Virus record (IMG/VR): IMGVR_UViG_2913167280_000009
Coordinates: 1-28,277 of that record
Reading direction: 5' to 3' (one strand)
Origin: a virus
Taxonomy: Duplodnaviria; Heunggongvirae; Uroviricota; Caudoviricetes
DNA length: 28,277 bases
Shown here: positions 2,518-28,277 of the stretch, in pieces
How positions within the stretch are numbered: the first letter of the stretch is position 1
Layout: each line of letters begins with the position of its first letter
Translations under genes and position numbers: made by a program
The notes under the pieces: model-generated
Database searches by the model: none
The model's input: only the letters and a program-made list of their open reading frames with translations
What the model was told of the DNA's origin: nothing

Positions 2518-2709
2518 AGCACTTGCTCCTTTGTTGGAGAGGCGCTAACCTGTCACTTGCGAAGGTTATGTGGTTAGTGCCCCGAGTTGAACATAAAAGT
2601 TTAACCGGGGCCTTTCCACATCTGGCCTTCGGGTATTCCCTCCAGCCATCAGCCGAAAGGCACCCGCGCGTAATCTATCGCTTTTTTGTTACTCCGGCAA
2701 TTCAGCCTG

Positions 2710-2970
2710 TTAATTCTGAGGTAAGGGCAAACTCATCTGGTTGTTTCCCCTGTGTGAAGCTGGTAGCTCATTCCACGGGATGCCCTCTGAAGAGTGAACG
2801 CAGGGGGCGTGTTTCGATGTGAATTTATGGAAAGCCTCCAGTGTTGAGAAGCATACGCCGCATTCCAGGTTGTTACACTGGTAATATTTTTTCCGTACGG
2901 TATCTGAATCATTTTCCGAACGACTGGTGCGGATACGGGCAGATGCGCCACAAAGCGGACAACGGAACAT
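2710..2970 (-). CDS. ogr: Ogr/Delta-family zinc-finger late gene transcription activator
   Basis: N-terminus MFRCPLCGASARIRTSR...YYQCNNLECGVCF matches P2 Ogr (MFHCPLCQHAAHARTSR...YHQCQNVNCSATF), Cys4 finger; immediately downstream of D as in P2. Stop position (86 aa vs 72 in P2) less certain. Confidence 0.8.
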   Translation of the reverse strand: MFRCPLCGASARIRTSRSENDSDTVRKKYYQCNNLECGVCFSTLEAFHKFTSKHAPCVHSSEGIPWNELPASHRGNNQMSLPLPQN

Positions 2971-3012
2971 AGCGACCTCCCTTAACGTGGTGCTGCCGCT
3001 ATTCTAAGTTGC

Positions 3013-4113
3013 TCACTCTGTTTCTGCTATCCATTCCGGGATTTTTGCTTCAAGCTCAAGCTGAGTGGTAAAGCCGCTGTTGTCAATGGTGTGCTCGGCT
3101 TTTGCAATAATCCAGTCCTGATTATCAATCTCGCTTTTAAAGCCTGTTACCGTGCCATGCATTTCGGGATAGAGTTCTGCTCGTCCACGTGCCAGCGTGA
3201 TGGAAAATGATGCGGCTCCACGTTGTAGCTGCTGCCACTTTGCCGCCGCTGCGCGTCTTGCTGCCTGCTCGTTCTGATAAGTCTTGCGTAACACAAACAC
3301 GTTGCCTTCCGCGCCTTCCATATAGTCGCCTTCCCGGCTGCTGCTTTTCTCCTTTTTCGGTTTGCGGCGTTTCACGCTGACTTTTTTCTTTTTCCCGTAA
3401 TTAAGATCAAGCCAGTAGGCGCGTACACCCGTATACGCCTCGCGGTCAGCAATGCGAAACTGATGGCGATCGCCGCTGCTGCGTGTGATGGCAAACGATG
3501 GCAATGGTTTTCCCTGCGCGTTCACGCCACCACCTGGCATGATGAATAACAGATTACCGCTTTTTACCGTGGTGATTGCGCCCAGCATTTCCGCCATGCG
3601 TGTAAGGAAGGACATGTCGCTTTCTTCGGTCTGGTCTGCGTGGTCGATTTCGATATCCATCAGCATTTCGCTGATTTGCGGTTTCAGGCCGTATCGGTGA
3701 GCAATTGCAGACACCACGCGTTCAACGGTCACATCATGCCAGGATACTTCGCGCTTGACGTTAAATTCATCCCGAAAATCTGCGCTTCTGGCTGAAATGG
3801 TCAGTCTGTCTGGCGGTCCTTCATGAGCAATTTCATCAACAATGTAAGTGCCTTTTTCAGTCAGCGGTTCCCCTTTCCAGCCAATGAGAACCGTCAGGCG
3901 AGCGCCCCGTGGCGGCAACTGCAACTGACCATCAGCATCATCCAGCGTGATGGTGAGCTGGTCTGCCTCAAATCCCCGGTTGTCGGTCAGTGACAGGCTC
4001 ATCAGGCGTTCTGCCACACCGGACAGCGTTTTCCCCTCCGCGAGAATATCAAAATCAGGCATCTTCACGGGGTCAGTACTCTGGTTGAACAGTTGCATGG
4101 TGGTGTTAATCAT
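3013..4113 (-). CDS. D: Tail protein D (late control gene D family)
   Basis: About 366 aa from the Met at 4113, which has GGAGG 6 nt upstream; the ORF track extends to 4245. Family assignment is by recognition of gpD-like sequence and by the D-ogr adjacency, not by a search. Confidence 0.8.
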   Translation of the reverse strand: MINTTMQLFNQSTDPVKMPDFDILAEGKTLSGVAERLMSLSLTDNRGFEADQLTITLDDADGQLQLPPRGARLTVLIGWKGEPLTEKGTYIVDEIAHEGPPDRLTISARSADFRDEFNVKREVSWHDVTVERVVSAIAHRYGLKPQISEMLMDIEIDHADQTEESDMSFLTRMAEMLGAITTVKSGNLLFIMPGGGVNAQGKPLPSFAITRSSGDRHQFRIADREAYTGVRAYWLDLNYGKKKKVSVKRRKPKKEKSSSREGDYMEGAEGNVFVLRKTYQNEQAARRAAAAKWQQLQRGAASFSITLARGRAELYPEMHGTVTGFKSEIDNQDWIIAKAEHTIDNSGFTTQLELEAKIPEWIAETE

Positions 4114-4270
4114 CGGCTTCCTCCCTGTGCAGCATGGTCGCATGTGTGTGCGGGCGGGGTTACTGCTTTTTGTTGTCGCCGGGCGGCAAGAACGGCGCAG
4201 GGATGAGATTACGCGCGTGGTGGGTGATGATTGTTGCCGAATCATTTAACGGATACAAGGGGCTGGAACT

Positions 4271-5455
4271 ATGAGTGAAACTCGCTTTCATGGCGCCCGC
4301 GTTACGGAAAGTACCGACCTGGTAACAGCAATTAACGACGTTGATTCCAGCGTTATCGGTATCGTGGCAACGGCGGACGATGCGGACGCGAAGCTGTTCC
4401 CGCTGAACAAGCCCGCATTAGTGACCCGCGTCAATGACGTGCTGGGAAAATGCGGGACAACGGGGACGCTTTACCGTGCGCTAAAACCCATTGCAGACCA
4501 GGTGAGCACAAAAGTGATTGTGGTTCGCGTGGCTGAACACAAAGAAGAAGACGGAAAAACACAGGATCAACTGGTTATCGGTGGTTCTGAATCCGACGGC
4601 AGCTATACGGGGATGTATGCGCTGCTTGTTGCAGAGCAGGATGAAAGCATTGGGTACCGTCCGCGTATTCTGGCCGCGCCGGGCCTGGATACGGAGGCGG
4701 TGACCAAATCCCTGTGCGTGATTGCAGGTAAACTGCGCGCGTTTGTATATGCCTCATGTCACGGCTGCAACACGATGGCTGAAGCCATTGCGTACCGTGA
4801 AAAATTCAACGAACGCGAGCTGATGCTCCTGTGGCCGGACTTCATCGCTTACAACCCGAAAAGTGGCGAGAATGAGGTTTTCCCCGCGCCTGCCTACGCG
4901 TGCGGCCTTCGTGCGTACATTGACCATGAGCAGGGCTGGCACAAATCGCTGTCCAACGTTCCGGTCAAAAATGTGCTGGGGATGTCCAGGCATGTGTTCT
5001 GGTCGTTGCAGGCCGAAGACAGCGATGCCAACAGCCTCAACAACAAAGAAATCACAACCATCATTCGCCGCAACGGGTTCCGCTTCTGGGGTAACCGTAC
5101 GCCGGAAACGAACGCCTACATTTTTGAGGTGTATACCCGAACCGCACAGGTGCTGGCTGACACGGTTGCGGAAGCGCAGTTTGAAACCATCGACAGTCCA
5201 CTGACGCCTGCGAACGTGAAGGATGTTATCAGCGCTATGAGGGCAAAACTTGATTCGCTGGTTACTGCCGGGAAACTGATTGGCGCATCGTGCTGGTATG
5301 ACATCGTGGATAACAGCACCACAGAATTGCGACAGGGGCGCGTGCGTATTCGCTATAAATATACGCCCGTTCCTCCGCTGGAAGATATGGAGCTTTACCA
5401 GGCGTTCACTGATGAGTTCTTTGGTCCTGCATTTGCAGTGCTTGGAGGTGCTTAA
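4271..5455 (+). CDS. FI: Contractile tail sheath protein FI
   Basis: 394 aa; long colinear matches to P2 FI (FPLNKP, RPRILAAPGLDT, KLRAF, RELM..WPDF, EQGWHKSLSNV, RRNGFRFWGNRT, YTRTAQV, YTPVPPLE). Confidence 0.95.
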   Translation: MSETRFHGARVTESTDLVTAINDVDSSVIGIVATADDADAKLFPLNKPALVTRVNDVLGKCGTTGTLYRALKPIADQVSTKVIVVRVAEHKEEDGKTQDQLVIGGSESDGSYTGMYALLVAEQDESIGYRPRILAAPGLDTEAVTKSLCVIAGKLRAFVYASCHGCNTMAEAIAYREKFNERELMLLWPDFIAYNPKSGENEVFPAPAYACGLRAYIDHEQGWHKSLSNVPVKNVLGMSRHVFWSLQAEDSDANSLNNKEITTIIRRNGFRFWGNRTPETNAYIFEVYTRTAQVLADTVAEAQFETIDSPLTPANVKDVISAMRAKLDSLVTAGKLIGASCWYDIVDNSTTELRQGRVRIRYKYTPVPPLEDMELYQAFTDEFFGPAFAVLGGA

Positions 5456-5967
5456 TGGCCGTACCAAAACATCTTCGTTTTTTTACGCTGTTTGTGGATG
5501 GTGAAAATGAAGTGGGTAAGGTGACGTCTGTCACCCCGCCTAAACTGACGCGTAAAACCGACAGCTATCGTGGTGGTGGCATGATGGGGGCGGTGAGTAT
5601 CGACCTCGGTCTGGACGATTCCGCGCTTGATGCGAGTTTTGTCATGGGTGGCGCCGTTCGTGCGCTGTTCCTTAAATATGGCGGAACAATGGACGGCACG
5701 CTGCTGCGTTTTGCGGGTGAATACTACACCGATGCAGAAAGCGACCTGTATGAAATCGAGATGCGCGGGCGTGTGACGGAAATTGATATGGGGGAGGCCA
5801 AACAGGGCGAAGCCACGTCACACACTTACGCTGTCAAAAACACCTACTACAAGCTGAGTATTAACGATCGTCCGGTGTGGGAAATTGACCTGGTGAACCA
5901 CATCTACCGGAAGGATGGCAAGGACATTGTACCCGACCGCATCCGCTCCGCGCTCGGGCTCGGCTGA
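5455..5967 (+). CDS. FII: Tail tube protein FII
   Basis: 170 aa, start overlaps FI stop (TAATG); size and position as P2 FII. Confidence 0.9.
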   Translation: MAVPKHLRFFTLFVDGENEVGKVTSVTPPKLTRKTDSYRGGGMMGAVSIDLGLDDSALDASFVMGGAVRALFLKYGGTMDGTLLRFAGEYYTDAESDLYEIEMRGRVTEIDMGEAKQGEATSHTYAVKNTYYKLSINDRPVWEIDLVNHIYRKDGKDIVPDRIRSALGLG

Positions 5968-6021
5968 TAAGTAATATGCAGGCGGCGCAGTGCGTCGCCT
6001 CTGACTGAAAGGAGTTTTCTG

Positions 6022-6390
6022 ATGAAAGAGACGAAAAATACCAATACTGAAAACGCTGTGGTGGTTGCTGATACTGCGAAAGAAACCAGCGAGCGCGGCG
6101 TAAAACTTACCCAGCCAATTGAGCGAGGCGACGAAAAAATCACGTATGTGGAGATCACCGGGGCTATTGAGCAGGCTGGATCCCTGCGTGGTCTGTCGCT
6201 GTCTGATGTGCTGAATCTGAAAGCGGAATCCATGTTTACGCTGTTGTCACGCGTGACATCACCGCGACTGGATGAAGTGACGATCAAAAAAATGGCATCC
6301 TGTGACTTTATTCAGTTATGTGTGGTTGCCGTAAATTTTTTGAGCGGTGCGGACTCTGGCGGGAAGAACGAACAGGCGACGGAAGCCTGA
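6022..6390 (+). CDS. E: Tail assembly chaperone E (zero-frame product)
   Basis: 122 aa acidic protein between tube and tape measure genes; strong RBS AAGGAG. Confidence 0.85.
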   Translation: MKETKNTNTENAVVVADTAKETSERGVKLTQPIERGDEKITYVEITGAIEQAGSLRGLSLSDVLNLKAESMFTLLSRVTSPRLDEVTIKKMASCDFIQLCVVAVNFLSGADSGGKNEQATEA

Positions 6391-6554
6391 TCACGGTTGT
6401 GTGCTTTGAGCACATAGAAGACTTTGTGGCAGATATTGCCGTTATTTTTAACTGGTCGCCCGCCGAAATCTTCATGATGACGCCCGGCGAAGTGGTTAGC
6501 TGGCGTGAGCGGGCGGCACTTCGCAGTGGGAATGCAGACGATGAAGACTCTTGA
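6022..6554 (+). CDS. Tail assembly chaperone E+E' (frameshift fusion product)
   Basis: E frame to the slippery site at 6336-6342, then -1 frame (ORF 6318..6554) to stop at 6554; equivalent to P2 E/E' and lambda G/GT. Confidence 0.7.
6336..6342 (+). other. Programmed -1 ribosomal frameshift slippery heptamer T TTT TTG
   Basis: In the E frame the codons are AAT TTT TTG (N-F-L); the -1 frame continues open to 6554 and reads SPAEIFMMTPGEVVSWRERAALRSG, the conserved E' extension. Confidence 0.75.
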
Positions 6555-9342
6555 CATTCGGGTCGCCTTCAGTGCTGTTGACAGGCTGACCCGGCCAGCC
6601 GAAAACGCCCGCCGCCTGATGGGACAGTTTGGTGACTCCATCCAGCGAACGCAGGGGGCGATCAAAAATCTCGAGCGTCAGGCGCGTTCATTTGAGCGCG
6701 CCCGCGATGCTGTCAGTAAAGCGGATGCTGGCATCGTGAAAGCACGACGCCAGCTTAACGCCCTTCATCAGTTACAACGCACGGGTACTGTGCTCAGCGA
6801 AAAACAACAAAGGCTGATGCAGCAGTTAAGCACCCGGCTTGAACGCCTGAATGAATCGCGCACGCGGGAAATTCAGAAAATGCGGGAGCTTGGCGGAGAG
6901 CTTAAACGCCACGGTATTTCCCTGACAGGCAGCGATAACACCATCCAGCAGGCCATCAGACGCACCGAACAGTACAACAACCAGCTTGAACGCGAACGAC
7001 AGGCGCTTGCGCGTGTAACGCGGGCGCGTGAGCGGTATTCACGCGCGCAGGAAACTGCGGGAAAACTGAAAACAGGTGGTGCGCTGGCAACTGGTGCGGC
7101 AGCGGCTGGCGGCTATGCTGCCGGGCGTTTTTTGCAGCCCGCTATCGGATTCGGGAAAGAGATGTCCCGTGTGCAGGCGCTGACGCGAATTGACCAGAAC
7201 AGCCCGCAGTTTAAGGCGCTGCGTGAGCAGGCGCTAAAGCTCGGCTCTGAAACGCAGTTTACTGCGAGTGATGCCGCCAGTGGGCAGGCATTTCTTGCTA
7301 TGGCTGGCTTCACACCAGAAGCCATTCAGGCTGCGCTTCCCGGCGTGCTGAGCATGGCAACGGCTGGCGGTATGGACCTTGGCGAGACGGCGGATATTGG
7401 CTCAAATATCCTGACGCAGTTCGGCCTCTCTGCTGACCAGATGGACCGGGTCGGCGACACACTTACTGCGGCGTTTACCCGTACTAACACCGACCTTCGC
7501 GCGCTGGGCGAAACCATGAAATATGCAGGTCCGGTGGCGGGTAAGCTGGGAATATCGCTGGAGCAGGCCGCAGCGATGGCGGGCGTGCTGGCGAATATGG
7601 GTATCAGAGGGAGTGATGCCGGGACGGCAATGCGTGCCAGCCTTGCTCGTCTGGCATCACCGCCAAAGGCGGCAGCAGAGGCGCTGAAAGAGCTTGGTGT
7701 GGCTGTCTCTGATGCGAACGGCAAAATGCGCCCGATGGAGGATGTGCTGGCCGACCTTTATAAAGCCACCCGCAAATACGGGGAAGTTGACCGGGTATCG
7801 TTCTTTAAGGACATAGCCGGAGAAGAGGCCTTCACGTCATTTATGGCCCTCGTTGATGCGGCAGGTGACGGTTCTCTGCCCAAACTGAGAAAAGAACTTG
7901 AAGGCGCACGCGGTGAGGCTGAACGCACGGCAAAGGTTATGGCCAATAACCTTGATGGCGACCTGAAATCACTCGGCAGTGCATGGGAGGGGCTGCGTAT
8001 CCGCATTGCGGATCTGATTGACGGTCCGCTGCGCTCTGTCACGCAGTGGCTCACTCGGGTGGTCTCAAAGGTGACGGAGCTGGCGCAGGCCCATCCGGCA
8101 CTGACGCGCCAGCTACTGATTGCAGGCGGTGCGCTGCTGGCAATGACTGCAACGGTTGGCTCGTTGTCACTGGCTCTTGGGGTGCTTGCTGGCCCGCTGG
8201 CAAAACTGCGTCTTGGTTTTTCCCTCCTGACCGGATCAATGAATGCTGTCAGGGTCCTGCCAGCGCTGTGGGGAATGGTGGCGGGTTCCGTCTCTTTACT
8301 GGGAGGCGCTATCGGGGCGTTGTTCAGCCCGGTCGGTCTTATCGTAGCTGCGCTTGCCGGAGCTGCCGTTCTCATCTGGAAATACTGGGACCCAATCAGG
8401 GCATTTTTTGCCGGGGTGTTCAGCGGGATTATGGAGCGGCTGGCCCCGTTACGCGAAACCTTTGAACGGTTTGGCCCTGTTTTCGAACTGGTTCGTGATG
8501 GCGTGATTCAGGTCTTTAACTGGTTTACATCGCTGCTGTCACCGATGGAATCCAGCAAGGAAACGCTGGATAAATGCACCAGTGCTGGCGAGGTGTTCGG
8601 CAACGTTCTTGGCGGTGCGTTACAGCTTGTCCTGACGCCTGCAAAAATGCTGCTGGATACGCTGGCATGGATACTGGAAAAACTTGGCGTCCTTCCAGAT
8701 GAAGCGGAAAGGGCGAGAAAGAAAATCGAAGACGCGCAGCGTGCGGCCATTCTTCAGGACAAGGTTGCTTTGCTTCAGGGGGACCTGGCAAAAATCAATC
8801 CACCGAAGTCTGCGGAAACAGGGACCGGAGGCGATAAGCCTAAAGACAACAAGCCGCTCACGGACAACAACACTGGCACGCTGCGCAGGCTCAGCAAAAT
8901 TGCAGATAACACAGGCAGGCTGGTTGATGAGACGAAAAAGCGTATCGGCCCCGGTGATATTGTCTTTAAGAACCTGCCCCGTGCGCTTGCTGTTCGTGGG
9001 GAGTGGCAGGAGCGGAAGATTGCGCAGGTCAGTAGGCCTGCTTCCGCAATCAACATCACACCCGTGGTCCCGGCTCCGTTATCTCCGGTGTTGCCCCCTG
9101 TTGTTGCAGCAAGCTCCCGTCCGGTCGTGGAGGCCGCACGTGCGCCAGTTGCGCCCGTTTCCGCATCTTCCCGCAGCCGGGAGGCTGCGACCCCCGGATT
9201 TGGTGGTGAAATTCATGTCCATCTGCATAACGTTGTTACGCAGAATCCCCGCGAACTGGCGAAACTGGTCGGCGAAATGGTCAGGGCAGAACTGGAGCGG
9301 CGTACCCGTGCCGGGCGTGGCAGCTTTTATGATAAAGAGTAA
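6532..9342 (+). CDS. T: Tail tape measure protein T
   Basis: About 936 aa, helical N-terminal half, Gly/Ala-rich hydrophobic central segments, directly after E/E' and before U. Start ambiguous (GTG 6505, ATG 6532 or ATG 6541). Confidence 0.9.
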   Translation: MQTMKTLDIRVAFSAVDRLTRPAENARRLMGQFGDSIQRTQGAIKNLERQARSFERARDAVSKADAGIVKARRQLNALHQLQRTGTVLSEKQQRLMQQLSTRLERLNESRTREIQKMRELGGELKRHGISLTGSDNTIQQAIRRTEQYNNQLERERQALARVTRARERYSRAQETAGKLKTGGALATGAAAAGGYAAGRFLQPAIGFGKEMSRVQALTRIDQNSPQFKALREQALKLGSETQFTASDAASGQAFLAMAGFTPEAIQAALPGVLSMATAGGMDLGETADIGSNILTQFGLSADQMDRVGDTLTAAFTRTNTDLRALGETMKYAGPVAGKLGISLEQAAAMAGVLANMGIRGSDAGTAMRASLARLASPPKAAAEALKELGVAVSDANGKMRPMEDVLADLYKATRKYGEVDRVSFFKDIAGEEAFTSFMALVDAAGDGSLPKLRKELEGARGEAERTAKVMANNLDGDLKSLGSAWEGLRIRIADLIDGPLRSVTQWLTRVVSKVTELAQAHPALTRQLLIAGGALLAMTATVGSLSLALGVLAGPLAKLRLGFSLLTGSMNAVRVLPALWGMVAGSVSLLGGAIGALFSPVGLIVAALAGAAVLIWKYWDPIRAFFAGVFSGIMERLAPLRETFERFGPVFELVRDGVIQVFNWFTSLLSPMESSKETLDKCTSAGEVFGNVLGGALQLVLTPAKMLLDTLAWILEKLGVLPDEAERARKKIEDAQRAAILQDKVALLQGDLAKINPPKSAETGTGGDKPKDNKPLTDNNTGTLRRLSKIADNTGRLVDETKKRIGPGDIVFKNLPRALAVRGEWQERKIAQVSRPASAINITPVVPAPLSPVLPPVVAASSRPVVEAARAPVAPVSASSRSREAATPGFGGEIHVHLHNVVTQNPRELAKLVGEMVRAELERRTRAGRGSFYDKE

Positions 9343-9353
9343 GGAGTCGTGCC

Positions 9354-9842
9354 ATGATGATGATCTACGGCATGTTTGTTTTTGAATTGCGCACATTGCC
9401 GCATCAGCAGTTACAGCAAAACAAAAGCTGGCGACATGTGAAAAACGAGCGCGTTAACCGTTCAGCAAGCTGGCAGTATATCGGTGCAGGTGATGATCGC
9501 ATCGTTCTTTCTGGCGTGCTTTATCCTGAGATTACAGGCGGCGAAGTGTCGCTGTCGCTGCTGACCACGCAGGCGTATGCGGGACGCCCGTGGCCTCTGA
9601 TTGATGGCGTCGGGCAGATTTACGGCATGTATGTTCTGACCGAAACGAGCACGACCCGCTCTGAACTGGATCGCTACGGGAAAGCGAAAAAGATAGAGTT
9701 TTCCCTGACCCTTGAACGCTGTGATGAGGATTTGCGGGAACGCCTGCAATCCTCATCGTTCAGCGATATGCTGTCAGGCTTCAAAGATAAGGTGACATCA
9801 TCCCTTAACAGCGCGACCAGTTCGATTAAAGGGCTGTTCTGA
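9354..9842 (+). CDS. U: Tail protein U
   Basis: 162 aa starting MMMIYGMFVFELRTLPHQQLQ, typical gpU N-terminus; immediately after T. Confidence 0.85.
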   Translation: MMMIYGMFVFELRTLPHQQLQQNKSWRHVKNERVNRSASWQYIGAGDDRIVLSGVLYPEITGGEVSLSLLTTQAYAGRPWPLIDGVGQIYGMYVLTETSTTRSELDRYGKAKKIEFSLTLERCDEDLRERLQSSSFSDMLSGFKDKVTSSLNSATSSIKGLF

Positions 9843-9912: not shown

Positions 9913-10488
9913 TTACACTAATTCTGGCCACTCTATATCAGGGGCATTTTCTGGCTGAACGCGGTTAAGTAATACCCGATATTTTTTCCATTTTGTCAGA
10001 CTTAATTTCTCTTCTTCTGTAGCCATATCCAAATCGACAGCATCCTGCAGAGTGGCAATAATTTCACCTGCATATGCAATCTGCTCTTTCTTCCGGGACT
10101 CTGCTGCCCTGACAAGCGCATCACGTTCTGCGCTCTCATCGTCCACCCACGCATTCCCGTTCCATTTCTGATAGTTGCCGGTCGGGGAAATTGTTGTTAC
10201 ATCAGATGGTAATGCGCCAAGTTCAGAAATATAAATGGCTGCTCCTGTTTTTGTTTCATAGACAGTCTTTCCGCGATGGTCTTCCATCAGTTCCCATTTC
10301 ATTTCATCTGCATTGAAAACGGCGGCAAAACCCGCTGGAATATCAGGAGGCGCAATATCTGTGCTGTTTGCAGGCAGACCTGTATGCGGTGGAATATATG
10401 CGTCACCTTCTCCAATAAATTCATTTGTACCATCGAGATAATTAAATACGCGAATGGTTTGTGCTTCAGCACTCATTCTGAAAGTCAT
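9913..10488 (-). CDS. Tail fibre assembly protein (Tfa; P2 gpG / lambda Tfa family)
   Basis: [34 protein letters not shown] is nearly identical to lambda Tfa; C-terminal [19 protein letters not shown] motif; ATG at 10488 with GAGG RBS (track start 10494 is an upstream GTG). Confidence 0.9.
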
Positions 10489-10512
10489 TTTCACCTCTAA
10501 TCAGAGAAAGAA

Positions 10513-11382
10513 TTATTGTTTATGTGGGGTATGGGAATGAGCACCAATGGTGATATTCCTTCCGTGGCTGTGTGCGCCAATGGCAATATTACCTACGGAT
10601 TTTACCGGATTAATCTGATGCATATGTGCCCCCGGGCGAGAACGATTATTAGTCAGCACGTCATCAACCTGATGTTCAGGATTAATGCATACCTGCCCTG
10701 ACCGTAAGCAATACGTCCGATAATCTCCGAGTCCAATATATTTAATATCCGCATAACGACAGGCAGGAGTACCCGGGCAGTATGCGCATGTATTAAATAC
10801 TTCTAACTGGCGGGAGTGTGCGTATTCCCAGTTAATTGCTTCTGTTTTTTTACTAAAGTTATCCCATGCCTGCTTCATCTGCCGGGCAACACTTTCAAAC
10901 GGCACCTGACCACATCCGGCCCCCATTGCAGGGAATACCACCGTCTTTATTTTCCTGTCTGTCGTTGCATTTTTATTGTGCTGAAAGATGGCAAGTAAAG
11001 CAGCCCACGTGGCGTTATATACAGCGTCTGTTCCGTCAATGGTCAGCGGAACGCGCATTGTTGGCGCATGTACCAGCCAGGGATGGTTGTTATCCCCCGT
11101 TTCAATAACAAATGCAGTGCCTACAGGCTGCTCACCAAGATATTCACGAAGAATATGATTCTGAACACGTGTCTGTAACTGAGTACCAAAGAATGCAGTA
11201 ATGGCAGCGTCAACGCCGCCATCCATTAGCCCGAAACTGTTTGCCGCACTGACCATGCAGTCAAATTCCGGGATTGCTTCAAATGGTTTTTCTACAACAT
11301 CCACATTATCTGCATTTGCGAATACCCGCTTAAATGCTTCAGCCATTTCAGGTACTGGTGCTGAAAGAATTAAATTAATCAT
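10513..11382 (-). CDS. Macrodomain (ADP-ribose binding/processing fold) protein with Cys-rich linker and His-rich fibre-tip-like C-terminus; function unknown
   Basis: 289 aa. N-terminal ~180 aa carry macrodomain signatures: [21 protein letters not shown] (compare VNAAN..GGGVDGAI), [14 protein letters not shown] (compare FPAISTGVYG). C-terminus has GAHxH repeats. Start ATG overlaps the H stop (ATGA). Confidence 0.7.
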
Positions 11383-13832
11383 GCAAGCCTCACAATATAG
11401 TTATATGCAATGTTTTTTACGGTGTTTTCCGCATTACCAGTAGCGTTAACCGTGATGGTATGTCCGTGCGCACCCAATGCCACAGTGTGTGCATGGGCAC
11501 CAATGCCAACCGTGTGATTATGCTGACCAATATCAACAGTATGGGCGTGCGCTCCGGCAGAGCTTGACACCTGGTTGGTTCCTGATACCTGTACGCGTTG
11601 TTTACCACCAACAGAGTCACCACCATAGCGACCACCGACAGTGTGCGTATGTGCTCCCGTATTGTTTGTCGTTTTTGTACCGTGGTTAAACGTGCTTACC
11701 GTTTTTGTCCCGTAATCAAATGAGCTGGTCGTTTTAGTACCGAGGTCAGTATTTGATGCGCTGGCACTGTGGGTGTGCGACTTGATGCCATCCTGTTCCT
11801 GAGACAATACGGCGCGACCACTGGCAGGTTTACCCTTAATTGTCCAGCCACGCATATCAGGAATAACCCCGGACGGATAGGCAACCGCAAGTTTAGGGTA
11901 AGAGCCTTTATCAAAACTTTGCCCCTGCATAATGGCATAGCCTGTAGGTACTGAATCAGAAGGCCACGGAATTGGAGACCCCACAGGGTAAAGCTCTGTC
12001 GGAGGATGTGCCGATGTGTAAAGCTGATCCCAATCCTCTTCAAAACCATAGCCGTCTCTTGATGAACGGTAGAACAGGCCTCCATTTCTGTAATGCGCCT
12101 TCATCTGCAAGGTGCGGCAACTTCCGACTCCGGTATAGAAGTTAACCAGAATATAGCTGTCGCCAGAGCGGGTGACATTGTAAGCGCCTGATTCAGCATT
12201 CCAGGGAACGCCCCCATCAGCATCGGCATACGTACCCGTTGCTCTTCTGGCAAAAGCAGCAACATGCGCAGCGGTTAAAGTAATATCTTTGGAACCATCA
12301 AACTCAACCCCAGAAACCCGTCTGGGCGTTTGCAGCTTTGTAGCTGTCGATGCGTTACCGTTCAGACTTGCGGACAGTTTGGTTCCAACAGTCAGTTCAC
12401 CAGTTGCGTTATCAACAGCAAACGCTCTCAATGCATTATGTTCGCCATAAACATCACCTTTGTTGGTAAGCAGCAGGTAAGTTTTAGCGCCGTCATTTCT
12501 CCATAACGCACCGTATTCCCCGCCTATCATTCGAATCTGATTGCCGCCGCGCGCTACAATTTCGTCTGTTGCGAACAGTTTTTTACACGACAAATTGTCG
12601 TTAACGATTAACGAATGGGACTCATAAAAACCGCGCCCACTTTTAAAATCAAGGATAACGTCAGCCGCGACACATTCTGTCGCCGGATTTATTGCTCCAA
12701 ACTTATAGGTCGTATCATTGACAACGAGATCTGCGGCCGGAACGGATATTGACAGACCATCTTCGATAAACGCAAAAACAGGGAAAGCAGCGCCATCAAC
12801 ATAGAACACAGAGCGCAAATCATCGCCCTTATTACTCATCATTATTGAGTGAATGGCTCGTTCATTGTTTTGATATTGCCAGAACATTCCATAGGCATAA
12901 CGCCCCCTGTCAGTCCAGCCGCCAGGCATAACGAATCCATTAAACTCACAGTTATTTAGTGGATCGTTCGCAGTTCGTGTTGCGGTAGTAATAATTACTC
13001 TTGATGCCAGCTCGCTTACTGAGCCAGCAGAGCGCATAACAACAACAGGGTAATATTTCCCCGGTGTTGCACCTGCCGGAGCATTAACGCGCACATAACG
13101 CATGCCATGCTTAGCAGCAAAGTCGGTTTTGCTGACCGCATTAATGTTGTTCAGGAAAGCGCCCTTATCTGGAATATCGTTACCGTTCTGGTCTTTCTGC
13201 AGACGTTTCTCAGCATTGTCATAGGCTGATTTTACTGCCTTTGGCGTTGCTGCCAGTGACTCGGAGGTGCTGTTGGTCGCACTGCTTAACTGAGTAAAGC
13301 CTTTTGCGGTCAGCGAGGCATCCGGGTGACGTCGTGACTGTTCATGCTCTTTTAGTTTGTTATCCACGTAATCCACCGTGGCCATCACCATGGTGTTATC
13401 CACGGTAAGCGCCACGGTGGCAGTGCTGGATACAGTCAGGATGGTGCGAAATGTTTGCGCACGCCCTGACCCTTCGGCAACGGCTGGCTTGTAACTTTCG
13501 GCAGTATTGCCCACCGCGATTAAATCACCGTGCTCATCAAACACACCAATTTCCCGGATCCAGAATCCGCCCGTTTCTGGAGGAATAACCAGCTCCGCAA
13601 TAATGCGGTTCTGATGTGTTTCGTCCTGGGTGACACGATTAACGGTATGTCGCCACACCTCATGCACGAGACGGGTCTGCTTACTGTCTGGCGTGGGTAA
13701 AGTACCACCGCCGTCGCCCACGGCCATATGAGTCAGGCGGACAGGCTTACCATCTGGCGCGGCTGCCTGAGCTAATTTTTTTGCACCCGTATCGGTGATA
13801 ACGGTTTTAAATTTTCGTGTTGTGGTACTCAT
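11379..13832 (-). CDS. H: Tail fibre protein H
   Basis: 817 aa; N-terminal ~220 aa match P2 H ([67 protein letters not shown]); C-terminal tip with HxH repeats. Confidence 0.9.
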
Positions 13833-27224: not shown

Positions 27225-27536
27225 TCATTCAGGAAATAATGCCCGGATATTCCCTGCTATCTGACTGGTTATCTGTGCGGTTGATACTGGCTGTGACGCG
27301 GGGGATTCTGTCCTGGTTTGTGTCACTGATAACGCTTCATCATCAGCCCATGCAGCCAGTCGGTAAGCCTCTGCCGGATTCATCTTCAGAAGTGCCAGCC
27401 CGGCCAGAAAAGCCACGCGCTGGCCGCTTTTGCGGGCTTCTGGTGTAAGGCTGTCCAGCCAGGCGCATGCTTCGCCTTCGTTCTTGACGGCGGCTGGCTT
27501 CAGATAGAAACTTATTCTTCTGGTTAATGTCGCCAT
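27225..27536 (-). CDS. parR: ParR/StbB-like partition adaptor (centromere-binding)
   Basis: 103 aa; RISFYLKPAAV...AWLDSLTPEARKSGQRVAFLAGLAL aligns with R1 ParR (TIAFKLNPDVN...DTLDSIPQGERSRLNRAALTAGLAL); directly downstream of the parM homologue. Confidence 0.75.
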   Translation of the reverse strand: MATLTRRISFYLKPAAVKNEGEACAWLDSLTPEARKSGQRVAFLAGLALLKMNPAEAYRLAAWADDEALSVTQTRTESPASQPVSTAQITSQIAGNIRALFPE

Positions 27537-27542
27537 GGAGGG

Positions 27543-28277
27543 TTACTCCTTATCCATAGCGTACAGACCGTTAACCAGAGCAAACTGTGGCACCCCGTCT
27601 GTGATGAAATTCGCATTGACTCCATAGACTTCACGGACTGCGGGTGCCACAATCTCCGCTCCTCCACCGACAACCAGCACCCGCCCGTAACCCGAAAAGC
27701 CCGCGAGTGCGCGGATCACGCGTTGTTTCAGTGTCTCCTCCTTTTCACGAATAACCGCCATCAGGCTGTTGTAATGCGCGTCATTGTGAATGTGCTGGCG
27801 TAGCCAGGCTTCATCGTGACGGTGCTCAATAATGGTATTGGCGATGTGGTGACTGGTACGCATACCGTTAGTGGCCATCACCGACAGCACGGCATCAGCC
27901 ATCAGGGAAACGCCTACGTGTGGATCGCAAAACACCTGGCTGATGCCTGCCAGTTGCCCCTGAACCTTTGCCACATCCAGCGTGGTTCCGCCCAAATCCA
28001 CAATCAGCAGGGATTCAAACGGACTCATGTCAGCCAGTGCCTTAAAGCCAGCCGGAATGGATTCAGGCATAACCCGCACGTTACGGATAGTGAATGCCTC
28101 ACCGTTCTGGCACTCCACCGGGCGCATGACGTTCGCTTTTTTGCGGTTGATGTTGGCCATGTCCGGCTGTGCGTTTGTGTCGAAATATTCGCTCAGTGGC
28201 AGGGTGACAACCACATCCACTTCCTGTGGTGTGATGCCTGATTTGACCAGTGCGTGGTGAATGGCAATGACATTCAC
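27543..28277 (-). CDS. parM: ParM/StbA actin-like partition ATPase, N-terminally truncated by the window edge
   Basis: Colinear matches to R1 ParM: IAIHHAL, ITPQEVD, RKKAN, VMPESIPAGF, SLLIVDLGGTTLDVA, GVSL, FSGYGRVLVVGGGAE, LVNGLY. Confidence 0.85.
   Translation of the reverse strand: MNVIAIHHALVKSGITPQEVDVVVTLPLSEYFDTNAQPDMANINRKKANVMRPVECQNGEAFTIRNVRVMPESIPAGFKALADMSPFESLLIVDLGGTTLDVAKVQGQLAGISQVFCDPHVGVSLMADAVLSVMATNGMRTSHHIANTIIEHRHDEAWLRQHIHNDAHYNSLMAVIREKEETLKQRVIRALAGFSGYGRVLVVGGGAEIVAPAVREVYGVNANFITDGVPQFALVNGLYAMDKE

Follow-up and report, generated by a model that had tools for sequence, protein, structure and literature searches.

In the 28,277-nt stretch of caudoviricete DNA analyzed here (the window), a 289-aa ORF lies between the tail fibre gene H and the tail fibre assembly gene tfa, and its product combines a macrodomain, a four-cysteine module and a C-terminal tail with three histidine-rich GAHxH units related to those of the fibre needle. 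We tentatively propose (probability of about 0.4) that this tail, which Tfa may fold, is a metal-stapled trimerisation stalk that carries an intact ADP-ribose-binding or -hydrolysing domain. The features on which the analysis relies are the following:

11379-13832, minus strand: tail fibre gene H, 817 aa (Pfam and PHROG tail fibre families)
11382-11879, minus strand: H residues 652-817, collar, needle and head, homologue of the T4 gp37 receptor-binding tip (phmmer)
11460-11555, minus strand: four successive GxHxH units of the H return strand, residues 760-791 (motif positions and direct repeats)
11379-11382, minus strand: ATGA overlap between the TGA stop of H and the ATG of the macrodomain ORF (sequence)
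10513-11382, minus strand: macrodomain ORF, 289 aa, between H and tfa (ORF)
10798-11382, minus strand: macrodomain, residues 1-195 (Pfam Macro, Foldseek, profile match)
10663-10797, minus strand: four-Cys module, residues 196-240 (Cys conservation; weak beta strands in AF2 models)
10516-10662, minus strand: C-terminal tail, residues 241-289, with three GAHxH units (BLASTP, shuffles, fibre HMM)
10492-10497, minus strand: Shine-Dalgarno sequence GAGGTG of tfa, within the 24-nt spacer that follows the macrodomain stop (sequence)
9913-10488, minus strand: Tfa, tail fibre assembly chaperone of the lambda Tfa / P2 G type (Pfam Caudo_TAP)

The fibre H carries a complete gp37-type tip

The H protein consists of an N-terminal tail-collar region, fibre repeats, a gp34-type trimerisation domain and a gp37-type tip, with Pfam matches to PF12571, PF03406, PF21446, PF07484, PF12604 and PF03335. 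Its tip matches PDB 2XGF over the full length of 166 residues (phmmer, E 1.3e-51), so that the C-terminus of H shows the collar, HxH needle and head of a gp37-type fibre and the final sequence ...NIAFNYIVRLA. An initial annotation of this DNA had quoted two His-rich C-terminal peptides, both of which are indeed encoded by the minus strand of the window. However, it had ended H at ...HTITV, whereas the protein continues for 26 residues that, as in T4 gp37, make up the rest of the collar domain; it had also assigned the HxH repeats to the distal tip of such fibres, whereas in gp37 these units line the needle shaft instead of the distal head. The tip of H has six HxH units, compared to seven in T4 gp37, the needle of which holds seven Fe sites (PMC6957217). 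The first two units of H are KSHTH (residue 684) and GAHTH (residue 726); the later ones, GAHAH (760), GQHNH (769), GAHAH (778) and GAHGH (787), follow each other with a period of nine residues, and a family of direct repeats (D1) with a spacing of 27/54 nt underlies these return-strand units. Even on this genuine fibre segment, the Phage_fiber profile PF03335 scores just 21.3 bits for a cut-off of 20.

The macrodomain gene has a fixed place but is optional

The ATGA overlap implies that translation of the macrodomain ORF is coupled to that of H. The same overlap, with a fibre gene ending in ...VRLA, was found in all 80 related loci, and a Tfa gene follows the macrodomain gene in 83 loci out of 83. 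Lambdoid, P2-like and P1-like elements all show this layout, as do many enterobacterial prophages. In the window, the product of the gene directly downstream of the fibre cassette matches Caudo_TAP with an E-value of 8e-39 (133 bits, cut-off 22.1). No promoter-like or terminator-like site was detected on the coding (minus) strand within 10513-11382. A moron, i.e., an autonomous cargo gene, was rejected on the basis of the 4-nt overlap with H, of the 24-nt spacer before tfa and of the lack of consensus promoter and terminator.

The macrodomain gene is optional to the cassette, as the fibre tip and Tfa also occur without it. Among 80 gp37-type tips, Tfa comes directly next in 73 cases and the macrodomain gene in four, the three others having either no downstream ORF found or a contig end; no other gene was found in the slot between fibre and Tfa in this set. 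For example, the cassette of P24A7b is devoid of a macrodomain gene, has a TAATG junction and encodes a Tfa about 90% identical. The near identity of Tfa proteins with and without the macrodomain gene thus gives no sign of chaperone adaptation. The gene is carried by 128 of 5426 complete Escherichia coli genomes and is widespread in Salmonella.

Many members of the family are named "phage tail protein" in NCBI, while the corresponding PHROG family, phrog_2613, has no assigned function. The "tail protein" label was not retained for homologues from jumbo phages: their genes are located far from tail genes, so that these names probably result from annotation transfer. Our searches for literature on this gene (macrodomain plus tail fibre or fibre assembly) returned no paper, and no proteomic data were found.

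A conserved macrodomain followed by a cysteine module

The N-terminal part of the ORF matches Pfam Macro (PF01661) over residues 44-169 with 69.9 bits (cut-off 22, E 2.3e-19), and its core retrieves 118 PDB macrodomains with Foldseek at E<=0.001. The top structural match is 1NJR, the yeast ADP-ribose-1''-monophosphatase Ymx7 (E 5e-9), and the best sequence match by profile is 2DX6. AF2 models this core with a pLDDT of 70-90. The ADP-ribose pocket has intact motifs, whose conservation with 43 stand-alone homologues is at least 90%. The domain belongs to the Ymx7/Poa1p-like kind and is closely related to stand-alone cellular macrodomains, which share about 50% identity with it and are about 200 aa long. 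It is under strong purifying selection (dN/dS 0.08-0.21). A marginal match to the PADLOC DarG model (E 0.0039) is restricted to residues 138-176; a DarG-type antitoxin or anti-DarT macrodomain was discarded, the full-length match to the DarG model being absent.

The following module has the pattern AYC202-x5-C208 ... YC225-x6-C232, with HQVDD after it. Three of its cysteines (C202, C225 and C232) never vary in the family, and conservation of the fourth, C208, is at least 90%. It is presumed to be a zinc knuckle or ribbon; AF2 predicts weak beta strands at low confidence (pLDDT of about 40-55). An HMM search of 1.84 billion representatives did not find this module outside the family, the remaining matches being family fragments and spurious repeats. 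There is therefore no evidence that it is a general docking module, a role that we considered and set aside. P0124, a 76-aa stand-alone peptide with Cys and HxH motifs, turned out to be a truncated remnant carried by degraded prophage islands of Salmonella.

The tail resembles the needle shaft of the fibre

All three GAHxH units are found within the last 44 residues of the macrodomain ORF: GAHMH at residue 251 (10618-10632), GAHSH at 269 (10564-10578) and GAHSH at 280 (10531-10545). They are separated by 18 and 11 residues, compared to nine in the fibre. At the protein level, the similarity announced by the initial annotation is far above that of shuffled sequences. The tail and the C-terminus of H share 15 identities over 38 positions (BLASTP, E 5e-6), and none of 200,000 shuffled tails has three GAHxH motifs. 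An HMM of the fibre return strand gives the tail 16.6 bits, compared to -1.7±2.8 for shuffles, none of which (0/200) reaches this score; in the family, 30 of 36 distinct tails beat all 200 shuffles. The HxH motifs of the tail therefore lie in a fibre-like sequence context. In contrast, PF03335 stays below threshold on the tail (13.4 bits for a cut-off of 20, E 0.09) and reaches 13-15 bits on other tails of the family.

The tail aligns to positions 19-39 of the fibre HMM, i.e., to the final pair of HxH units in the needle shaft. It copies neither the receptor-binding head nor the collar, and no homology to the collar-completing end ...NIAFNYIVRLA was detected at its end. The proposal that the macrodomain protein carries a fibre-like module is thus supported at the sequence level and across the family, but what was called fibre-tip-like corresponds to the shaft only. 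In monomeric AF2 models built with 25 and 56 homologues, the pLDDT of the tail is 26-31. It is therefore formally disordered (pLDDT <35), which had been named as grounds for refutation, but a monomer model is unsuited to an obligate metal-dependent trimer and is uninformative if the protein is one.

The resemblance does not extend to DNA. The units presented as related DNA repeats, GCRCCAATG at 10541, 10574 and 11497, are just I-G-A codons and their count alone is not significant, as 20 of 100 shuffles reach three. When any macrodomain tail was compared with any fibre 3' end (43 x 63 sequences), the longest match was 19 nt, and the resemblance was limited to I-G-A-H codons. The alignment of the two C-termini thus holds for proteins and fails for DNA; duplication or gene conversion between tail and fibre at the DNA level is excluded by this longest match, and these data indicate neither a recent duplication nor an exchange scar.

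The architecture is conserved but the tail evolves fast

A macrodomain, a four-Cys module and one to three HxH motifs make up the architecture of the whole family. At least one HxH is present in the tail of 156 of the 160 unique family proteins, the four others having none, and the third HxH is missing from the most populous E. coli cluster. Histidine accounts for 15% of the tail compared to 2.2% of the rest of the protein. The tail is retained in proteins whose macrodomains are only about 65% identical, including variants from Enterobacter, Erwinia and Izhakiella. It evolves fast, with a dN/dS of 0.90 in the clade of 300-aa E. coli proteins and of 0.29 and 0.39 in the two other clades analyzed. 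Identical macrodomain tails are paired with many different fibre head sequences. None of the 43 stand-alone macrodomain homologues has Cys or HxH motifs at its end, and no conserved gene partner was found near 55 stand-alone homologues.

Possible roles of the macrodomain protein

In all solved phage fibres and spikes, three chains each contribute an HxH motif to a single Fe (or Zn) site, which is octahedral and lies on the three-fold axis (PMC6116203). Such Fe sites include single-pass and C-terminal ones, as in P2 gpV and the R-pyocin fibre, and it has been suggested that they set the register of three nascent chains (PMC6116203; PMC6957217). Given this geometry, the tail is most likely a short metal-stapled trimerisation stalk, which would turn the macrodomain protein into a fibre-like homotrimer. 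In this reading, the 289-aa protein belongs as an optional accessory to a receptor-binding cassette of the gp37 type, which consists of the fibre tip, the macrodomain protein and Tfa and moves among lambdoid, P2-like and P1-like enterobacterial phages. The fixed place of its gene before tfa would then reflect a reliance on the chaperone that folds the HxH needle of the fibre. During late infection, at the time of fibre production, the macrodomains would act on an ADP-ribose derivative by binding or hydrolysing it; a counter-measure to ADP-ribose-based host immunity seems more probable than a step of fibre assembly.

We count for the stalk (i) the true gp37-homologous fibre tip, (ii) the above-shuffle similarity of the tail, (iii) the presence of HxH in 156 of 160 proteins, (iv) the strict synteny, (v) the tail dN/dS of 0.29 and 0.39, (vi) the lack of internal promoter and terminator and (vii) the conserved macrodomain motifs. 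We count against it the low pLDDT of the tail and of the Cys module, the fast evolution of the tail (0.90), the losses of HxH, the sub-threshold PF03335 score, the 18/11 spacing, the near-identical Tfa with and without the gene, the just marginal DarG match and the fact that no literature or proteomics was found.

A less probable explanation is that the gene encodes a counter-defence or metabolic enzyme that hitch-hikes in the most exchanged slot of the genome, its tail having little or no role related to the fibre. The tail would then either bind metal in a generic way or be what is left, in slow decay, of an ancient in-frame fusion with fibre His-box sequence. The optional nature of the gene, the strong purifying selection on the macrodomain itself, the tail dN/dS of 0.90 in one clade and the loss of HxH in several lineages agree with this. 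Furthermore, phage macrodomains are known as counter-defence enzymes: T4 AdfM acts against DarT2 (10.1101/2025.11.20.689424), and a chimallivirus DarG2-like protein is reported as another (PMC13309987). However, a neutral remnant should have disappeared at the divergence between lineages, whereas 156 of 160 proteins keep HxH motifs, with fibre-like I-G-A-H-x-H flanks, and the dN/dS of the tail is low in two clades. Moreover, the lack of own promoter and terminator and the exact ATGA overlap differ from typical morons, and the protein is not DarG-like.

It is somewhat more doubtful that the product is a virion protein that either forms a mini-fibre on the particle or docks onto the gp37-type fibre or its collar, the HxH tail serving as the anchor alone or together with the Cys module. 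When docked on the fibre, the macrodomain would be an extra adhesin or an enzyme acting at the cell surface, and gp38 adhesins do ride on gp37 in T2-type phages. The strict location of the gene between those of the fibre and its chaperone, its translational coupling to the former, the copy of the most conserved stretch of the fibre needle, a fast tail evolution reminiscent of receptor-binding regions and the NCBI name of many members all fit this proposal. Nevertheless, in solved fibres the six Fe ligands of each site all come from the three fibre chains, so that it is not obvious where a foreign HxH strand could be accommodated, and the tip of H is complete and T4-like by itself. The association of the same macrodomain tail with varied fibre heads means that it does not co-vary with receptor-binding loops. 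Known ligands of macrodomains are ADP-ribose derivatives found inside cells, the "tail protein" names seem to stem from transferred annotation, as for the jumbo-phage homologues, and proteomic evidence was not found.

Tail-fibre tips folded by a chaperone are sensed by type II Thoeris, whose His-ADPR signal is read by a macrodomain (bioRxiv 10.64898/2026.06.04.730250). An improbable but conceivable role would be that of a fibre-mimicking counter-immunity enzyme, in which the His-box-bearing macrodomain, produced in cis with the fibre and Tfa, is brought by Tfa or by the sensor to the source of the signal and hydrolyses or sequesters it. If true, a counter-defence enzyme would for the first time be directed to its target by structural mimicry of the immune trigger.

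Finally, the other hypothesis of the initial annotation, that the HxH-encoding DNA of the tail is a scar of receptor-binding cassette exchange left by local recombination between fibre His-box sequences, is largely refuted and very improbable. His boxes are established recombination sites in T-even fibres, as reportedly described by Tetart and colleagues in 1998, and the shuffling of fibre heads among cassettes that keep identical last HxH units, macrodomain gene and Tfa fits such recombination; but the DNA match does not exceed 19 nt, the tail is family-wide rather than local, is kept across lineages with diverged macrodomains (only about 65% identical) and is under purifying selection in two of the three clades, no ...NIAFNYIVRLA remnant follows it, and the gene occupies a precise, translationally coupled slot in 80 loci out of 80.

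Comparison with known systems and significance

Several known systems share traits with the proposed stalk-bearing enzyme. As in the T4 gp37 tip (2XGF), the tail has an I/V-G-x-H-x-H-T/G-V/I unit that aligns to the last two return-strand units, but it comprises only one to three units in a single pass, without return strand, collar or head, and it ends an enzyme domain. Short HxH motifs on a three-fold axis, sometimes near the C-terminus, are also known from the P2 gpV apex, phi92 gp138, the R1/R2 pyocin fibre shaft and T4 gp12 (PMC6116203); however, they sit within long beta-helical or shaft domains, whereas those of the macrodomain family come after a globular macrodomain and a Cys4 module. 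The Ymx7/Poa1p- and TTHA0132-type macrodomains, which are ADP-ribose-1''-phosphate phosphatases and ADP-ribose binders, resemble the phage protein by their fold (1NJR), sequence (2DX6) and pocket motifs. Unlike it, the cellular proteins stand alone, measure about 200 aa and have neither a Cys4 module nor an HxH tail, nor a conserved gene neighbourhood, and the activity of the phage protein is only predicted. T4 AdfM/Tk.4 and the chimallivirus DarG2-like protein are, similarly, phage macrodomains that plausibly remove or degrade an ADP-ribose-based immune product, but they are DarG/TARG1-like, are encoded outside the fibre operon and lack a fibre-like tail. As for gp38/Tfa accessory genes, they also lie directly after a gp37-type fibre gene and are co-expressed with it; nevertheless, they have no sequence relation with the macrodomain gene, which coexists with Tfa and is dispensable for the cassette.

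Undoing ADP-ribose-based immunity is an emerging function of phage macrodomains, and HxH iron sites typify the trimers of fibres and spikes. The family described here unites the two and fixes the combination within the host-range cassette that is the most mobile one in enterobacterial phages. Should the tail be a portable trimerisation tag that depends on a chaperone, it would illustrate how a phage can recruit a cellular enzyme into its fibre-assembly pathway and might provide a small engineering module. If the protein is fibre-borne or counters an immunity triggered by fibres, receptor-binding cassettes would be linked to ADP-ribose biology, a link that would matter when fibre cassettes are chosen or engineered for phage therapy.

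Organization of the Locus and of the Element

The window corresponds to the late region of a P2-like (Peduoviridae) element, in which three consecutive genes of the minus strand encode the tail fibre H, a macrodomain protein and the tail fibre assembly chaperone Tfa.

Genes of the fibre-macrodomain-tfa cassette
11379-13832, minus strand: H, tail fibre, 817 aa (Pfam: tail-collar N-terminus, fibre repeats, gp34-type trimerisation domain, collar domain and gp37_C)
10513-11382, minus strand: macrodomain ORF, 289 aa (Pfam Macro, E 2e-19; PHROGs phrog_2613)
9913-10488, minus strand: tfa, tail fibre assembly (Pfam Caudo_TAP)

H and the macrodomain ORF overlap by an ATGA shared between the stop codon of the former and the start codon of the latter, whose own stop is separated from the tfa start by a 24-nt spacer including a GAGGTG ribosome-binding site. 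Examination of the coding strand revealed no consensus promoter or terminator inside the macrodomain gene. The fibre, the Tfa chaperone and the macrodomain protein share one late transcript, and the sequence indicates that the macrodomain protein is translationally coupled to the fibre gene.

The block extending from sheath FI through the tape measure gene to gpU (4271-9842) is located on the plus strand and gpD (3013-4245), an ogr-like zinc-finger ORF (2710-2970) and the H/Tfa genes on the minus strand. Compared with the canonical P2 gene order, the FI-U block is thus inverted; in SEN5, tfa and gpU/tape measure are convergent, as in the window. The region 27225-28277, separated from the portal gene by a few genes, encodes ParM/StbA (truncated by the end of the window) and Plasmid_stab_B, which form a plasmid partition pair, and comparable portal-Ead/Ea22-ParM stretches are found on plasmids, among them a 34-kb plasmid of E. 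coli and a 27-kb plasmid of Shigella. Therefore, this element may be a phage-plasmid or derive from one. A related protein of 463 aa (P0024), found on a single 8.4-kb contig, carries a ParM/StbA N-terminus fused to the macrodomain protein; although probably a chimera created by assembly or gene calling, it echoes the ParM genes of the window. The left end (1-2015) carries cargo or regulatory genes atypical of P2: a GemA-like ORF (weak match just under the Pfam cut-off, 26 vs 27 bits) and an N6/N4 DNA methyltransferase gene.

Fibre Tip of H and His-Box Tail of the Macrodomain Protein

The receptor-binding tip of T4 gp37 (PDB 2XGF) has a direct homologue in residues 652-817 of H (E 1.3e-51), which comprise successively a collar, an outward strand, a small head, a return strand carrying four GxHxH units with a 9-residue period, and 26 collar-completing residues. 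At each HxH unit of T4 gp37, three chains together coordinate one iron located on the fibre axis (PMC6957217; PMC6116203). The H tip has six HxH units compared to seven in T4 gp37; around residues 684-726 (window 11660-11790), TFNHGTK aligns with T4 GGHTHSG and represents a lost unit. Because of this loss, the needle of H is predicted to hold six metal sites, not seven.

The initial annotation had pointed out His-rich repeats at the C-termini of both H and the macrodomain ORF, and the two peptides that it quoted were indeed found, the units of the macrodomain ORF being GAHMH (residue 251), GAHSH (269) and GAHSH (280). This C-terminal tail matches the C-terminus of H in protein comparison far better than by chance (BLASTP E 5e-6). 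Against a profile of 30 fibre return strands, it scored 16.6 bits compared to -1.7±2.8 for shuffled sequences (0/200), and shuffling the tail 200,000 times never produced three GAHxH units. The profile aligns it to the last two HxH units of the fibre needle, the collar-completing end of the fibre lying outside the alignment, and the Pfam model of the 14-residue fibre repeat gives a sub-threshold match. Two AF2 monomer models show a pLDDT of 26-31 for the tail, a monomer being uninformative on a putative obligate metal-dependent trimer. The DNA units presumed to be related proved to be merely I-G-A(-H) codons. Since the longest tail/fibre DNA match is only 19 nt (43 distinct tails against 63 fibre 3′ ends), recent duplication or gene conversion between them is ruled out.

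Origin and Diversity of the Family

The protein combines an intact macrodomain with a unique Cys4 module and a copy of the fibre His-box units. Stand-alone homologues of residues 1-195 (~200 aa, ~50% identity) are encoded by Chloroflexota, Cyanobacteria, Acidobacteriota, Bacteroidota and others (L011-L083; e.g., L062 from Acaryochloris marina), an identity unusually high for hosts so distant. All signature motifs are conserved at >=90% between the phage protein and these homologues; no C-terminal Cys or HxH was detected in the 43 examined, nor was a conserved gene neighbourhood found. Structural comparison gives the ADP-ribose-1''-monophosphatase Ymx7 of yeast (1NJR) as the best match, and the best PDB sequence match is TTHA0132; DarG gives a marginal, partial match. 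A search of 1.84 billion representative proteins revealed the Cys4 module in this family alone.

Public data contain >2000 relatives of the macrodomain ORF, the closest 120 originating from Escherichia, Salmonella, Citrobacter, Enterobacter and Erwinia. The architecture is the same in all full-length members: macrodomain (1-195), four-Cys module (AYC-x5-C ... YC-x6-C, then HQVDD) and variable GxHxH tail. Among 160 unique proteins, the tail has at least one HxH in 156 and two or three in 132, with a His content of 15% compared to 2.2% in the rest of the protein; some Salmonella tails retain the exact 9-residue period of the fibre (e.g., IYIGAHTHTIDTGAHNHTIQ). The ATGA overlap with a fibre gene ending in ...VRLA occurs in all 80 loci with enough upstream sequence, and tfa directly follows the macrodomain gene in 83/83 loci. 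The trio is present in the P2-like phages Chuche and SEN4/5, lambdoid prophage Gifsy-1, stfR-type prophages, P1-like plasmids and 128 of 5426 complete E. coli genomes.

Within clades, dN/dS is 0.08-0.21 for the macrodomain, 0.10-0.37 for the Cys4 module and 0.29, 0.39 and 0.90 (three clades) for the tail, which is the fastest-evolving part and has lost some HxH units. The tail is nevertheless under constraint in two of the three clades, and its HxH signature persists across lineages whose macrodomains are only ~65% identical.

Fibre heads between the HxH units vary widely while the macrodomain tail, the last two fibre HxH units and the Tfa type are constant (L090-L115 and other loci), which fits recombination break-points in the His boxes swapping only receptor-binding loops. 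On Salmonella chromosomes (L166-L168, 4001-4231), a 76-aa protein (P0124) retains the HxH tail and, of the Cys module, the second half alone; its gene neighbours Tfa fragments, pagK and sif-like genes and represents a decayed cassette remnant in a prophage island with virulence-associated genes. In the P1-like E. coli plasmid p1919D3-2 (L169, ~2650-6700), the macrodomain gene is frameshifted, the fibre gene is fragmented, and acetyltransferase-like and LPS N-acetylglucosaminyltransferase genes adjoin tfa.

The macrodomain gene is dispensable for the cassette. Peduovirus P24A7b encodes a tip of the same kind and a ~90% identical Tfa, but its fibre gene and tfa are directly joined (TAATG). Downstream of 80 gp37-type tips sampled from viral contigs, tfa follows directly in 73 cases and the macrodomain gene in four (no downstream ORF or contig end for three), no other inserted gene being found. 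Since fibre and Tfa occur without it, the macrodomain protein is dispensable for fibre assembly.

Discussion

In every solved case, HxH motifs form three-fold metal sites in trimers, including short single-pass or C-terminal ones, such as those of the P2 spike apex and R-pyocin fibre shaft, for which a role in bringing three nascent chains into register has been proposed (PMC6116203). Because of these precedents, the tail would most simply be a metal-stapled trimerisation stalk, and its invariable slot before tfa would reflect shared use of the Tfa chaperone. As the gene is optional and expressed late and its ligand pocket is conserved, the trimeric macrodomain would more likely act as a counter-measure to an ADP-ribose-based host response than in assembly or receptor binding. 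We assign a probability of about 0.4 to this reading of a Tfa-dependent stalk carrying an anti-response macrodomain. Our literature search yielded neither publications nor proteomic data for this gene.

That the macrodomain protein is a hitch-hiking enzyme with a tail of minor importance is doubtful: the optional gene and partial tail decay fit this view, but the persistence of the motif and exact operon embedding fit it poorly. Docking of the protein on the virion fibre, consistent with the gene position and fast-evolving tail, is unlikely, since three fibre chains already fill the needle metal sites, leaving no obvious place for a foreign HxH strand, and one and the same tail is found with many different fibre heads. 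Type II Thoeris can be triggered by fibre tips folded with their chaperones, and its signal, His-ADPR, is read by a macrodomain (bioRxiv 10.64898/2026.06.04.730250); in this light, the macrodomain protein could be a fibre-mimicking anti-signalling enzyme, although this seems improbable. Of the two initial interpretations, the fibre-like module holds at the sequence level and family-wide, whereas a scar of cassette exchange is highly improbable, being contradicted by the missing DNA similarity and family-wide conservation.

Overall, known parts (macrodomain, Cys4 module and fibre-type His-box tail) are newly combined in a conserved fibre-macrodomain-Tfa cassette, which provides a clean, testable lead.
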